This document shows positions 33,001 to 39,000 of a stretch of DNA of 47,697 bases, piece by piece. Each line of letters starts with the position of its first letter. Positions within the stretch are counted from its first letter, which is position 1. Made by a program: the position numbers. This DNA comes from Vulcanimicrobiota bacterium (GTDB lineage: Bacteria > Vulcanimicrobiota > Vulcanimicrobiia > Vulcanimicrobiales > Vulcanimicrobiaceae): contig PLCF01000011.1 in the NCBI GenBank assembly GCA_003135555.1, positions 16,634 to 64,330 of the forward strand, written 5' to 3'.

Positions 33001-36000
33001 GAGGGCTACCGGGGGTGTGGGGCTTGACGCTGACACGACGCTGGCTAAAGTTCAAGCACTACTGCTCGCGGAAGAGATTTATGGCTTGATCGCGCAGTAT
33101 TACGAAGACGAGCACCTTGGCATTACGAGCGAAGAAGAGTTGCTAAGCGATTTCGAAATGTTGTACGGCTATAGCGTAATGAAGACGCGCGGAGAATTGT
33201 CAGACCGGGGGAAGACGGACGCACTTTTGGATCGGTTCGCTCATAAGCAAGTTGACGCAGCGTCGATAGAAACAACTGCACAGGCCATTCAGCGCCTTGC
33301 GGAGCAGTTGCCTGAAAGCGACACGTTCCCTACAGGAGTTGCACAAAACGACGGTAGCACGGCGCTGGCCCGATATAAGGAATACACCGACATGATTCTC
33401 GAAGCGGCTAGGGTCGCCGCGGGCATAGCCGCAACGCGCACGGTGTTTTTACCGAAACCGAGGGAGCGACCATAAGCAAAGAAGACGGTTCCACGCCGCT
33501 GGAGCGATTCAAAGCATTCGTCTCGGAAATCCTAACCGTGACGAAAGACGATATTCGCACGGCTGAGGACGAGGCGAAAGAGATCGCGCGGGACGCGCTT
33601 GGCCCGCCACCCGCGGGGGCGCCGGCAACCGAGGGCGAGGAACCTACCGCGTAGTGGAACGACTAGCGTGGGGCAGGAGTGGGGGTATTCCACTGAATCG
33701 GACCGCCCGCGCTTACCGTGCTACTTGGGTTCGGTTCACGCTCTTCAACCCGGGTTGCATCTTGCGTGAGGCGGTCAATGCGCCAGACGATCCCGCCTGC
33801 CGACACGTATTGATAACGGAAAAACAATTGAAAGACGACCAGCAGGCCGATCACAATAAATATCCCGCGGAGCCAATGGAGCCTCATGGCGCGTTACGCG
33901 GTGTAGTCCGGCGGCCCGCTCGGCGGGGGCGCCTTGCGTCGTGCAACGCGACCGGGGCGAAGCCGCCAAAGTTTGTGCGTCTTGGTGAGGTCTGCATACG
34001 TCACGCGACGACCCTCGATCCCCTTAAGCGCCTCGTCCAACCGGGCTCCGTCGGGCAGCTCGCGGTTGTTGAACCGGAACACGCTTTCGTCCAGGTAGGC
34101 GTTGAGGTGAAAGGCTCGGGGAGCGATATACGTGCCGTGCAAAGTCCGCTTCACGCAAGACCAAAAGTTCTCAATCGTGTTCGTGTGAACGCGGCCTTCG
34201 ACGTAGCGGAGCGAATGGTCGATAAAGGCGTGAACGTAGTCGGGACTCAGTCCCCGGTACGAGCGCAGGGCGTCGGTATAGATCATCGAGCCGGGGAGCA
34301 CGTTGCGGTAGATGACCGGCATGAGCGAGGACGCCTTGTGATTGGGGACGACCAGCGCACGAACGCGCTGGCGCTTGCCGGGAGCCTTGCGCTCGACCAT
34401 CCCGAATACCGTCGCCTTGCCCGTCGCGGGACCGTGGGTAGACTTCAGGAAACCGAGCGATGTGCGAAACGTGTTGCCGAAGCCACGCTGCTTGCCTCCC
34501 ACGAACGTCTCGTCCATTTCGACCTCGCCAAAGAGCGGGCGCAGGTTGCGCTCCCGCATGGCGAGGCGGATGCGGTGCAGCATGAACCAGGCCGTCTTTT
34601 GGGTCACCCCGATCGCGCGGCCAAGCTCATGCGACGAGACGCCGTTGCGGTCGCCCGCGAGCATCCACATGGCGGGAAGCCACTTGTCCAGGCCGATGGG
34701 GCTGTCCTCAAAGATCGTCCCGACCTTCACGCTGGACTGCTTCTTGCAGTCCTTACACTGCCACATACGACGGGTCTGGATATAGCCGACCGCCGCCGAT
34801 CCGCACCCTTGGCGCGGGCAGGCAACGCCGTTCGGGAACCGCTGGGCGACCACGAACGCGTGGGCGCGATCCTGGTCCGAGAAGTAGACGATGGCCTCGC
34901 TCAGCGTCGTCGGGCTCGTCTGTTTGTGCGGCTTAGCGGCTGGCATACTCCTAGTCTACCGGAGCAACCCATGAAAGTCAATGAGTCAAGTATATCATCT
35001 TGACAACTGAAAAGCCGCTGAGCGAGTCTTAGGTAATATGGAACGGTTCGCGGACGATTTACAGGCGGCGATGGCTGGGGCTGGCTTGACGGCGGCGCAG
35101 GTGGCCCAGCAGGCAGGCCTGACCGAGGGAGCCATCTCCCTGCTGCGGAGCGGGCGGCGCGAGCCGTCGTACCGCACGGTGCGGGCGCTGGCGGCAGTAT
35201 TGCCAGCCCTAGGGCGGCGATTCGACGCGGAGCGTACCACCGTCGACTCGATCGAGTCCGCGATCGCCGAGGTCAAGGCCGGCAAGATGGTCATCGTCAT
35301 GGACGACGAGGATCGCGAGAACGAGGGCGACCTGGTGATGGCCGCCGAGAAGGTCACGCCCGAGGCGATCAACTTCATGCGCAAGGAAGGCGGCGGCCTG
35401 ATCTGCGTACCGATGTTGTCGGCACGGTTGGACGCGCTGCAGATCCCCAACATGGTCAACGACAATACCGCGCCGCTGGGCACCGCGTTCTCCGTCTCGG
35501 TGGAAGCGCGCGGGCGCGTCACCACCGGCATCTCGGCGCAGGATCGTTCGAATACGATTCGCGCCTTGATCGACACGAACTGCGGCCCGTCTGATTTCCT
35601 CCGGCCGGGGCATACCTTTCCGCTGCGCGCTCGCGATGGCGGCGTGCTCGTGCGGGCTGGGCAGACCGAGGCTTCGGTCGACCTCGCGAGACTCGCCGGA
35701 CTCTACCCCGCCGGCGTCATCTGCGAGATCATGGACGACGACGGCTCCATGATGCGCCGCGACAACCTCAAGGCGTTCGCCGAGAAGCACGAGCTGCGGA
35801 TAATCACGGTCAAGGATCTGATCGCCTACCGCATGCGCCACGAAAAGCTCGTCGAGCGCATCGCAGAGTTCGCGCTGCCGACCGTCAACGGCGCATTTCG
35901 CGGTGTCGCGTACGAAACCAAGACCGACGGGATCGCGCACGTCGCGCTGGTCATGGGCGAGATCGGGAACGGCAAGGACGTTCTCGTGCGCGTGCACAGT

Positions 36001-39000
36001 GAATGCCTTACCGGCGACGCGCTCCACTCACTGCGCTGCGATTGCGGCCCGCAGCGCGATGCCGCGCTGGCGGCGATTGCACGCGAAGGCCGCGGGGTGT
36101 TCTTGTACCTGCACCAAGAAGGTCGCGGCATCGGCCTCTCCAACAAACTGCGCGCCTACGCCCTCCAAGACGCCGGCGCCGACACGGTCGAAGCCAACAC
36201 GCTGCTGGGACTCCCGGCCGATAAGCGCGATTACGGGATCGGTTCGCAGATCCTCGTCGACCTAGGCGTGCGCGAGATGCGGTTGCTGACCAACAATCCC
36301 AAGAAGATCGCCGGTCTCGAGGGGTACGGGCTCACGATCAAGGAGCGCGTCCCGCTCCAAATCGCGCCCACCGCGCACAACGCACACTACATGGACACCA
36401 AACGCGACAAGATGGGCCACATGTTCGGCGCCCCTCCGGGTGCGGAATGAAGACCGCAAAGAAGAAAGCGCTGCCAGACGCGAGCGGGAAACGCTTTGCC
36501 ATCGTCGTGGCCGACTTCTACGCGGACCTGGCCGCGCAGCTCGAAGACGGAGCGCGCCGCGGGCTGCGTGATTGCGGCGTTGCCGACGATGCGGTCGAGA
36601 CGGTCCGCGTCCCGGGCTGCTTCGAGCTGCCGCTCGCCGCGCGCCGGCTGATCGGCGGAGAAAACCTCGACGGCGTGGTGGCGCTCGGCATCGTGATTCG
36701 CGGCGATACACCCCACTTCGACTTTGTGGCGGGCGAGTGCGCGCGCGGCATCATGGACGTGCAGCTCGGGACCGGGATCCCGATCGGCTTCGGTGTGCTC
36801 ACGACCGACAACCGGGCGCAGGCGGAGGAACGCGCCGATCCGGCGCGCGGTGACAAAGGCTACGAAGCTGCCGTGGCCGCAGCGACCGTAGCCGTCATTG
36901 AACCCAAGCGCGAAGGGCCGAGAGTCGGCTTTCGCTGATCGGCTCGGCGAGGATCAGCGGTTCATGGTGAATTCCACGGAGAATTCGTAACCGCTGGGAA
37001 CAGGCCGGCACCGGAAAATCGCTGGACTGTACGTGCTCCTCATCGCCGAGGAGGTCGAGGCCGCATTGAGTACGCCCCCCGGCGTTGAAATGATGCGAGA
37101 GAACCGTGGAATGCCGCGCTCGTCAAGTGCCACGGCGACACGGACCGTGCCTTGAGTGCCCATCTGCATTGCGGCGAGCGGCGTGTCCGGTTCGACCGCA
37201 TGTCCAACCGTCGGCGGCGAATAGGGGCGTGCACAAACGGCGGGCTCGGCGGCAACCGGATTCGCCAACACGAGCACCGGGCTACGAAGATCCGGGCGGT
37301 CGTAGCGTTCGCGCGGCTGCACGCCGGCGTGGAACGTGCACGATGCCCATTCGGGCGCGTAGATAATCCCTTCGATCGGCGCGTCAGCCCGTATGGTGAA
37401 TGACTCCTCCGATCCGTTGAAGGCCCGCTTGTTTAACGTAGTTCGCGCGACCGTTGCGGTCCACACCTTGTCCGTCCCATAGGCGATGATCTTCCCGGCT
37501 GCCGGACGGAGCGGATCGGTAATGCGCACGAAGGCGGCGTTGGGATCGCCGTCGACCTTCGTCGCGGCAAAGGTCGTCGCGCAAGCTGTATTCGGATCGA
37601 TCGCCGATTGGTCGGCAGCGATCGTCGCATGCGGCGCGAGCGCCATCGCACACACGAGGGGGATGACGGAAATCCTGGTCCGGAGTCGCATAACGTCGGT
37701 ACCTCCGAATCGCTGCGTTGAGACAGACGACCCTTGCGTCAACTGAACATCACGCTGAAGATGTAAGCGCCGATAACGTGCCGGCACCGGAAGATCGCAC
37801 CCTGGAACCGAGACCGGGCGGCTGCATCGACCGCGGCGCGATCCAAATCCCGGTTTCCCGACGAGAGTTGCACGCGCGTGCCGAACAGCTTGTCGTCGGT
37901 GTCGAGCAAGACCACTACCTGCACAGTCGCTTTTACACCCGGAGCCGGGTTACGAGGCTCAAACGCGCTTACCGTTCGGGACGGGACGTTCGGTGACGGA
38001 CATGCTACCGGATCAGCCACAGGAACGGGTGCATCGAGTGGGACGACGGCCTGAGCACGCGCGCGGGTGAGCTGTTGCGCCCGTCCGGCCTCAGAGTCGG
38101 GTCGATAGACGAACGCGATGGGAATCCATGGATTGAAGACCGGATCGCACCGCTCTTGACCGCTGTCCCCGATGGCCGTGACGGCTGCGCCGTCGAGAAC
38201 CGTTGCTTCCGGGAACCGCACGACGACCGGCGGCGAGGGCGTGGTGGTCTTATCGCGCGAGTCGACGACCACCATGTTGCGGAATGGAATATCGTACCGC
38301 CGATTTGCGGCGAAGAGCGAGACGATCCCCGACGCAAGCCCGGTTTGGAGCGCACCGACCGAAACCGCGTAGCGCGTGTGCGCCCCGTCGAGATCGAGGA
38401 CGCCGGCGGAAAGCGGGCAGTAGCGTGTGCCCGGCTCGGTGCGGGCGGGGCGAGCCGATGCGACCGGCCGGGGTGTCGCGGCAGGCGAATCTGCGATGCA
38501 AGGCGCTGCCGTCGCGAGGGCGAGAAGCGCCGTCACGGCGGCGCGAAGGCTGGTCACGTCGGCCGTCTTCGAAAGAGCCGCGCTGGGGTCCGCCGCCTGC
38601 CCCGCGGTGGATTGCCAAGGAAGGGCCGCTACCGTATACTTTCGCCACGACGCCACCCCTCGGTGGGCGTCGTGTTCCCTATCCACTTCATGGGGGGCCG
38701 GGGGGCTTTGTCGTCCGGCCGACGTCGGTGTACGAAAATAAAGTTCTGATCTGCAAAGACTGCGGCGCCTCGTTCGACTTCTCGGTCCGTGACCAAGCCT
38801 TCTACGCCGAGAAGGGTTTCGAGAACGAGCCGCAGCGCTGTCGCGACTGCCGCAACGCGCGCAAGTCGCAGCGCTCCAACGGTCTGGGCGCCGGGCCGAT
38901 CTCAACCGCCGGGCTGCGCGAAACGTTCGCCGCCGTGTGCGCACAGTGCGGCATCGATACGACGGTTCCGTTCAAGCCGCGCGGCGATCGCCCGGTGTAC

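Follow-up and report, generated by a model that had tools for sequence, protein, structure and literature searches.

A helix-turn-helix domain fused to RibBA and a palindrome over its promoter suggest a trigger-enzyme autorepressor in the Vulcanimicrobiales

Bacterial riboflavin genes are known chiefly as genes under riboswitch control, and the one enzyme-regulator that was found described (PMC5397151) is archaeal. This protein, RbkR, carries a winged helix-turn-helix (HTH) domain on a CTP-dependent riboflavin kinase and senses FMN and CTP; it is proposed to activate transcription, and its regulons comprise several genes. The same source names BirA, NadR and PutA as DNA-binding domains fused to cofactor or amino-acid enzymes and acting as repressors. 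In Wolbachia, the free-standing proteins wBmxR1 and wBmxR2 bind the promoter of a bifunctional ribA gene, act as activators in a reporter and are tied to type IV secretion genes (PMC3518464).

The locus analysed here shares with RbkR the joining of a riboflavin-pathway enzyme to an N-terminal DNA-binding domain, palindromic operators (predicted here), the lack of an FMN riboswitch and the loss of the domain in some lineages. It differs from RbkR in that it is bacterial, that an XRE HTH is placed on the first two biosynthetic enzymes, that the site lies over a -35 box and that apparently only one promoter is served; because the HTH class and the enzymes are others, HTH-RibBA is not a member of the RbkR family, and is predicted to work like it. 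None of BirA, NadR and PutA involves RibBA, and their ligands are known, whereas the effector of HTH-RibBA is only proposed. The DNA-binding domain of NadR is of the XRE type. The Wolbachia proteins wBmxR1 and wBmxR2 are likewise protein regulators at a bifunctional riboflavin gene (binding is predicted here), but they are not fused to the enzyme. A literature search for an HTH-RibBA fusion, with poor coverage of subscription papers, found no description. A bacterial repressor on RibBA would, if real, mean that protein-based control of the entry step had been invented independently, and for this case the protein, the site and natural loss-of-function controls have already been identified.

The window, which is the whole stretch of DNA analysed (47,697 nucleotides of contig PLCF01000011.1, numbered from its first letter), contains the following genes and domains.

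35038..36450, plus strand: HTH-RibBA gene, comprising the HTH, DHBP synthase (residues 73-264) and GTP cyclohydrolase II (residues 273-439)
35038..35205, plus strand: XRE/Cro helix-turn-helix domain (residues 1-56), placed by Pfam, predicted structure and conservation
about residues 29-38, plus strand: recognition helix, within the XRE/Cro domain
35206..35247, plus strand: variable linker (residues 57-70), mean conservation 0.48, pLDDT below 50 at residues 63-68
36447..36938, plus strand: ribH (lumazine synthase), whose start overlaps the ribBA stop by 4 nt

HTH-RibBA is a 470-aa open reading frame in a single frame and the sole RibBA match in its source genome (G000); three features of a trigger enzyme occur together here, namely a DNA-binding domain joined to catalytic ones, a sole copy of the enzyme and a conserved palindrome before its gene. 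The N-terminal part matches the Pfam profiles HTH_31 (residues 4-57, 29.2 bits, cut-off 27) and HTH_3 (residues 10-55, 27.1 bits, cut-off 23), and the enzyme domains match DHBP_synthase and GTP_cyclohydro2 over the intervals listed. The predicted structure places helices at residues 2-15, 19-26, 30-38 and 45-54 (block pLDDT 77-92 over residues 1-60), and by sequence the domain weakly resembles lambda-repressor-like and 434 repressor chains (E 0.002-0.6). By profile and predicted fold the N-terminal domain is an XRE/Cro HTH, and its co-conservation and co-loss with the site described below predict that it binds DNA in a sequence-specific manner. Over 39 genera, the HTH turn and recognition helix are conserved at the level of RibB and RibA (0.86 against 0.88 and 0.86) while the linker is not (0.48), which argues that the HTH is under selection; T29, S34, R41 and P43 are invariant in this alignment.

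The catalytic motifs are 97-100% conserved in the order. Those of DHBP synthase (acidic loop, Cys, RPGH, TE) are present, with residues 91-98, C123, H192 and T210-E211 invariant, and Q209, which takes the place of a His in Mycobacterium tuberculosis RibA2 (PDB 4I14), is 97% conserved within the order. In GTP cyclohydrolase II, C323, C334, C336, R397 and D398 are invariant (alignment A1); we take the three cysteines to bind zinc and R397 to be the catalytic arginine. The intact motifs of both enzymes suggest that the RibBA part is bifunctional, and ribBA and ribH are probably co-transcribed. RibA2, an ordinary RibBA, matches residues 67-463 by sequence (E 8e-149) and is also their top fold match; the fold search contributed nothing further, and no PDB chain matched HTH and enzyme together. 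In RibBX (6MNZ) the second domain is dead, whereas the cyclohydrolase motifs of HTH-RibBA are intact. A search of the enzyme domains for an allosteric signature yielded 26 columns that differ from outgroups or HTH-less copies, none of them interpretable.

The fusion is nearly fixed in the order and absent from the sister order, where the HTH is missing from all six genomes. Among the listed matches, 137 of 150 span the query from residue 4 or lower to residue 462 or higher (one of them, in G051, has an internal TGA), and the HTH maps to a single gain at the base of the order with support 97. Three genomes within the order (G086, G071 and G027) have no HTH orthologue, and these losses look independent, the branches being partly resolved and three changes being forced by starred branches. 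A fourth loss, at G010:C136, was ruled out because this gene is a second ribBA copy and the HTH form is present in the same genome, and G003 is uninformative because its contig stops inside the linker. In G071, ribE lies directly upstream of ribBA. PF00926 is present in every one of the best 120 among 152 homologues of the HTH part; the candidates for a free-standing orthologue (6 short matches and the 13 closest single-domain matches) appear to be pieces or misassemblies of this fusion, and identity to the nearest free XRE proteins is about 47-55%. These results bear out the preliminary description of the protein as a RibBA with an N-terminal XRE HTH, fused in one frame across the order, with a nearly invariant recognition helix and with the RibB domain in all of the best-matching homologues of the HTH. 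The domain is easily missed in annotation, since homologue P0061 (460 aa), from the cultured species Vulcanimicrobium alpinum, is named plainly as RibBA in its source record.

Upstream of the gene, the window contains a palindrome that overlaps the predicted promoter.

35000..35013, plus strand: predicted operator TTGACA-AC-TGAAAA, covering the -35 box and spacer
35000..35005, plus strand: -35 hexamer TTGACA, whose first three bases (35000-35002, TTG) are the terminal triplet of an IS1595 element
35024..35029, plus strand: weak putative -10 hexamer GAGTCT, with an 18-nt spacer and 8 nt before the start codon, in a leaderless layout

The predicted operator lies 24 nt before the ribBA ATG and reads TTGACAACTGAAAA in this genome, where 4 of 6 symmetric pairs hold and both mismatches fall in the right half, which had already been called degenerate. 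A site within one mismatch of the order consensus TTGACA-NN-TGTHAA precedes all 88 HTH-bearing loci with upstream DNA (75 are exact), a count for which the pattern was derived from those very loci. The palindrome previously given as TTGACA-NN-TGTCAA is therefore confirmed in its presence before the gene but not in its position 12, which is not mainly C (T 39, A 28, C 19, G 2). Position 3 is G in 86 of the 88 loci and its mirror, position 12, is variable, as expected if the -35 box constrains the left copy alone. Conservation reaches past the -35 hexamer: G10, A13 and A14 of the right half are invariant, and the flanking sequence is low in information. Chance is an inadequate explanation of the ribBA palindrome, because only 2 of the 227 TTGACA hexamers in the source genome have a right half with at most one mismatch, the ribBA site being one. 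There is little symmetric covariation between positions 6 and 9 (AT 78, GT 5, AC 3, GC 2). Covariation between HTH and operator is not claimed: all seven G6 sites pair with a residue 42 that is T or S, yet seven T/S proteins have A6, and the proteins are kin.

An xAxxxT hexamer occurs 16-18 nt past TTGACA in 74 of the 88 loci, compared with 3-10 at four control offsets, and the start codon follows it by 6-9 nt in all 74. This layout predicts a leaderless ribBA promoter, mostly with the site over its -35 box, so that the leaderless promoter of the preliminary description is sustained across the order, but the -10 hexamer in the window is weak and a consensus promoter scan of the window did not call the ribBA promoter. 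The palindrome persists away from the -35 position, as is seen from a second site 28-93 nt upstream at nine loci and from L017 and L020, in which the left half TTAAC lies 16 nt from the start codon.

The site is lost where the HTH is lost. None is found before ribBA in the HTH-less genomes G086, G071 and G027, which show 3-4 mismatches and have all lost the right half-site; in G027 a TTGACA still stands 21 nt ahead of the start codon. In genus g31, the five HTH-bearing genomes compared, which do not include G226 (L152), have TTGACAACTGTTAA, and the HTH-less G071 has CTGACAACCGATCT. In G010 the site precedes the HTH copy of ribBA and is absent before the HTH-less second copy. The site might also have vanished for a different reason, through loss of an internal promoter, for example in G071.

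A strict-pattern scan of 76 genomes returned 64 sites, of which 58 are at ribBA promoters, 4 are IS-made copies and 2 are elsewhere, and a reversed-pattern control returned 7 matches; a looser pattern was dropped as a definition of the regulon for its excess background. The strict scan found no general site upstream of ribD-ribE, transporters or other genes, so that control would be limited to ribBA-ribH, and the regulon looks like one promoter. A search for the FMN riboswitch RF00050 found it in none of 121 phylum genomes, HTH-less lineages among them, and in 7 of 14 controls. Its absence, noted earlier for the order, is thus real but not specific to the order, and is not tied to the fusion. 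A search of 8 loci with Rfam, for a riboswitch in place of the HTH at HTH-less loci, gave no relevant match (two were sub-threshold and unrelated). The fusion seems to have filled a regulatory gap; replacement of a switch is not demonstrable.

Taken together, conservation of the site past the -35 hexamer, its near-uniqueness in each genome and its loss with the HTH make it likely that HTH-RibBA is a trigger-enzyme autorepressor of the ribBA-ribH promoter. The autoregulating enzyme-repressor first proposed is supported by these comparative tests, with a reach that covers ribBA-ribH and not the whole riboflavin pathway. RibB and RibA are homodimers, and dimerisation of the enzyme domains would place two HTH domains on the two TTNACA half-sites. 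Once bound, the dimer would lie over the spacer and the -35 box, at about -38 to -25 relative to the start codon, and would block sigma-70 polymerase; a leaderless mRNA would leave no room for a riboswitch. By default this would create negative feedback, limiting the amount of the enzyme by which GTP and ribulose-5-phosphate are committed to flavin. DNA binding would be tuned by a flavin or by whether the active site of RibB or of RibA is occupied, with the adjacent RibB domain as the favoured sensor; this is the least certain step, and the balance for and against it is even.

The palindrome is also the site of a transposon insertion, and the window has the following features there.

32596..35002, strand not assigned: IS1595-family element of 2,407 bp in the operator centre, with inverted ends and an exact 8-bp duplication
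32588..32595, plus strand: ACAACTGA, the left-hand copy of the duplicated target, identical to positions 4-11 of the operator; the right-hand copy is at 35003-35010
33894..34946, minus strand: IS1595 transposase (zinc ribbon and DDE), for which a separate promoter is predicted at 34981-34953
32585..33475, plus strand: ORF carried by the element as a passenger, without a Pfam match, start approximate
32563..32598, plus strand: older element end, then an upstream operator-like copy, TTGACAACTGACAT, left by a previous insertion into this site

The transposase matches PF12762 (E 7e-35) and PF12760 (E 8e-10). The zinc ribbon and DDE transposase, inverted ends, 8-bp duplication and passenger genes are shared with other elements of the IS1595 family, of which an 8-bp target duplication is the norm; duplications of 14 or 11 bp were ruled out, because elements elsewhere show 8 bp and symmetric terminal triplets. 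The present elements stand out in that they come back to one and the same set of eight bases across many genera and that their terminal triplet re-creates the -35 box of the host. Related elements hit these bases recurrently, in both orientations; an element end adjoins the operator at 27 of the 88 loci, in 14 genera, and exact 8-bp duplications flank 10 elements at ribBA and 8 elsewhere. The operator dyad centre is a recurrent target of a putative IS1595 clade, 4 of whose 19 members are at other sites. Insertions can be tolerated because the ribBA-proximal end brings TTG, which restores the -35 box and the operator. A literature search for IS1595 targeting of such sites, again with poor coverage of subscription papers, found no description, and the recurrent insertion offers a clean system for the study of target choice and of possible guidance by a repressor.

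Several other readings of the palindrome and the HTH must be weighed against autorepression. The palindrome might belong to a separate, unlinked transcription factor, with the fused HTH having another role. Two genomes of genus g8 do have an exact site ahead of a Fur-family gene, 22 nt away in both, which indicates that a different regulator is able to give rise to a sequence of this kind or to use it; nevertheless, decay of the site in three HTH-less genomes, one of them within a genus, and its restriction in G010 to the HTH copy would require a free regulator that has one site per genome and tracks the presence of the HTH, which is unparsimonious, and we consider this reading improbable. There is similarly little likelihood that HTH-RibBA binds the site and activates transcription. 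The weak -10 in the window is of the kind that can mark activator-dependent promoters, but the spacer is normal (17-18 nt) and the -35 hexamer, at most loci a perfect consensus, itself lies within the site. A dimer bound over the -35 hexamer would compete with sigma region 4. The proposal that RbkR activates (PMC5397151) is the precedent for such a role.

That the HTH is only a conserved structural or non-specific nucleic-acid-binding appendage would agree with its loss in three lineages, but conservation is uneven over the fold, peaking at the recognition helix and the following loop, and a specific DNA site goes with the HTH, which makes this reading barely credible. It is equally hard to believe that the palindrome is a mere -35 box and preferred target of the IS1595 clade, read by no host protein. 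The precise insertion at its centre and the 27 adjoining element ends speak for a target, but the other 61 loci keep the site without such a scar, and insertion, which duplicates positions 4-11, has no means of maintaining positions 12-14, two of which (A13 and A14) are invariant; moreover, a host has no reason to conserve a transposon target, and such a target would not track the HTH. A doubtful but less remote extension of the autorepressor reading is that the autorepressor is ligand-gated, with the first pathway enzyme as its sensor, and that the operator-bound repressor also guides the IS1595 clade to the dyad centre. This would amount to homing under the guidance of a protein, into a safe harbour which is restored every time an element inserts and in which passenger genes gather in tandem. 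The insertion point is exact even at the degenerate sites ACAACTGA, ACATCTGC and ACAACCGT, which fits protein guidance but a loose sequence preference as well.

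The ribBA region of the window contains the following features.

31311-31859, minus strand: padR (Pfam PadR)
32013-32411, minus strand: small ORF between padR and the end of an older element; its start resembles a signal peptide, and Pfam gave no match
32596-35002: IS1595 element of 2,407 bp, whose end forms the TTG of the ribBA -35 box; missed in the preliminary description
35000-35013: predicted operator, 24 nt ahead of the ATG, reading TTGACAACTGAAAA
35038-36450, plus strand: HTH-RibBA gene, 470 residues in a single frame, with an XRE helix-turn-helix (HTH), DHBP synthase and GTP cyclohydrolase II

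It had been proposed that an HTH is fused to RibBA in one frame and that the best homologues of the HTH part carry the RibB domain, and both proposals hold: the 470-residue reading frame contains all three domains, and RibB is present in all of the best 120 of 152 homologues (source names Candidatus Eremiobacteraeota and Vulcanimicrobium alpinum). The ribH gene overlaps the ribBA stop (window gene calls and Pfam), and HTH-RibBA itself is the one RibBA match returned by a protein search of the window's own genome. In the predicted structure residues 1-60 form a confident helical HTH bundle (block pLDDT 77-92), the linker is of low confidence, and the overall pLDDT of 70.5 and pTM of 0.49 mean that the relative packing of the domains is not fixed by the model. 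Conservation across 39 genera is 0.86 in the turn and recognition helix, 0.88 and 0.86 in the enzyme domains and 0.48 in the linker, with the catalytic motifs intact in the alignments; selection appears to act on both the DNA-binding and the enzyme functions.

The protein was matched in 149 of the 151 genomes of the order (Vulcanimicrobiales). Of the 150 matches listed (165 in all), 137 span from residue 4 or earlier to residue 462 or later, and a further five among the matches listed begin at residues 1-3 yet are truncated or divided. The order-wide tallies of the protein, the site pattern and the transposase include three genomes flagged as unpublished (G147, G130 and G100), from which no locus-level claim is drawn. 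In all six sister-order genomes the RibBA match begins only at residue 48-69, the HTH is absent from the reading frames, and no site was found at promoter distance, the best candidates having 2-4 mismatches. Elsewhere in the phylum a single long match (genome G206) begins at residue 30, and the others start no earlier than residue 59; neither HTH nor site was found in the nine such loci read. In these data the fusion is limited to the one order. The RibBA query had no match in 34 of 121 phylum genomes, and several families match the cyclohydrolase half alone, figures which pertain to this query only and do not imply absence. A FastTree tree built from 51 rows of the catalytic portion groups the order in one clade (support 97), within which the HTH-less copies are separate tips; the tree indicates one gain of the fusion, with losses later. 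In three compared genomes a frame change divides ribBA (G117:C1:823174-824563), its match stops at residue 310 (G091:C3:96649-97578) or an internal TGA interrupts it (G051:C4:131203-132591), breaks which may be either sequencing errors or real.

Of 94 loci read in the order, 89 carry the HTH and 88 of these have upstream DNA. The palindrome claimed ahead of ribBA was recovered in all 88, within one mismatch of TTRACRNNYGTHAA and exactly in 75; the pattern was derived from these same loci, and the weight of the result rests on comparisons with controls. Of 76 genomes, 62 contain the strict pattern, at 64 distinct sites in total, compared with 7 matches for the reversed pattern: 58 lie at the ribBA promoter, 3 are IS-made copies at most 3 kb upstream, 1 belongs to an IS array where a contig ends, and 2 precede a Fur-family gene in genus g8. 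The strict pattern has no match in the window's own genome, in which 2 of 227 TTGACA hexamers are followed by a comparable right half. Within the right half (positions 9-14) G10, A13 and A14 are invariant across all loci, and also when each of the 39 genera is represented by a single locus. At position 3, 86 of the 88 loci have G, and its mirror, position 12, is variable, an asymmetry that fits a putative TTNACA half-site with the -35 box laid over the left copy. In nine of the loci a further site lies 28-93 nt upstream. The predicted leaderless promoter layout recurs across the order, with a -10-like hexamer 16-18 nt past TTGACA in 74 of 88 loci (3-10 of 88 at control offsets) and the start codon 6-9 nt beyond it.

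The HTH-less genomes serve as natural controls. In three of them (G086, G071 and G027, with completeness of 94-96%) no HTH orthologue was found anywhere in the genome and no site ahead of ribBA; G027 keeps a TTGACA 21 nt before the start codon, with the right half broken. In genus g31, where 7 of 8 genomes were matched and one of these was not parsed, five HTH-bearing genomes read TTGACAACTGTTAA and the HTH-less G071 reads CTGACAACCGATCT. Genome G010 has two ribBA copies, of which the one with the HTH has the site and the HTH-less one does not. Few such cases are available, yet all have the same direction. The HTH-less second ribBA of G010 (L050, contig C136) lies directly behind another gene, and the upstream frame is flavoprotein-like by eye.

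Judged from sequence, HTH-RibBA is probably an autorepressor of ribBA-ribH. RibB and RibA dimerise, and the dimerising enzyme domains would offer two HTH domains to the palindrome; the bound dimer would occlude the -35 box of the leaderless ribBA-ribH promoter, and the level of RibBA would be capped through negative feedback. Against autorepression stand the weakness of the window's own site and -10, the operator-like site at the Fur-family gene, the weak symmetric covariation in the site and the enzyme-domain columns, in which no allosteric signature was found. The chances are roughly even that a substrate, product or flavin modulates DNA binding. In RbkR the enzyme domain acts as the sensor (PMC5397151), and by analogy the adjacent RibB domain is the first candidate sensor. 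HTH-RibBA would work like RbkR, BirA, NadR and PutA, but is a member of none of these families. No description of the fusion or of operator targeting by IS1595 was found in the literature searched, most subscription papers being outside its coverage; HTH-RibBA is real and would be a trigger enzyme. The preliminary description had linked it to the lack of an FMN riboswitch (RF00050) in the order; the absence stands (0 of 121 phylum genomes vs 7 of 14 controls), but the specific tie to the fusion does not, because RF00050 is missing from the whole phylum sample and its absence therefore predates the fusion.

In the two g8 genomes an exact operator-like site lies 22 nt ahead of the leaderless Fur-family gene (L144:3052-3065 and L145:3040-3053), amid repeated TGTAAA words, and is either a separate site for Fur or an extension of the regulon that would join flavin control with that of metals or peroxide.

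On either side of the window's IS1595 element, operator positions 4-11 are present as an exact 8-bp duplication, and the older element end is just upstream. For ten elements at ribBA, from ten genomes, the exact 8-bp duplication corresponds to each genome's own operator variant, which points to recent and independent insertions. Nine of the 10 have TTG as the triplet on the ribBA side and one has TCG, and the distal triplet is varied (CAA 3, GGG 4, CAG 2, CAT 1); the element shows that selection acts on restoring TTG, in support of a functional promoter. An element end adjoins the site in 27 of the 88 loci (14 genera), and in none at each of six shifted positions. Fourteen transposases lie beside ribBA, 6 in the same orientation as the gene and 8 in the opposite one; together with 18 others they make up a tree of 32 sequences taken from the 61 transposase matches. 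A clade of 19 with support 100/99 contains all 14, one from an array that carries the operator and lies where a contig ends, and 4 from other sites, and none of the 13 transposases outside this clade is located at an operator. Target choice may depend either on the DNA sequence or on the repressor bound to it. The element was rejected as the source of the palindrome, since 61 of the 88 loci are scar-free and an insertion cannot keep positions 12-14. A promoter-like site in the element end (34971-34998, plus strand) faces ribBA and could add operator-independent transcription.

The ribE-ribBA interval (29040-35000 in the window, and loci L031-L045) is variable, extending from about 0.2 kb (L044) up to about 10 kb (L039) between the end of ribE and ribBA, and holds a thioesterase, padR, an FAD oxidoreductase and element passengers. 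Over the padR start, at 31857-31892, there is an inverted repeat (GTCGCGATA ... TATCGCGAC), probably a PadR autoregulatory operator; similar sequence occurs in loci L005 and L012. The small ORF may be a passenger of an earlier insertion, and the other end of the older element was not found. IS1595 elements elsewhere also strike promoter-like or palindromic DNA: the duplication at locus L135 is ACTATAAT, the insertion at L136 is immediately before a TTGACA, and L128 has the palindromic AGCATGCT.
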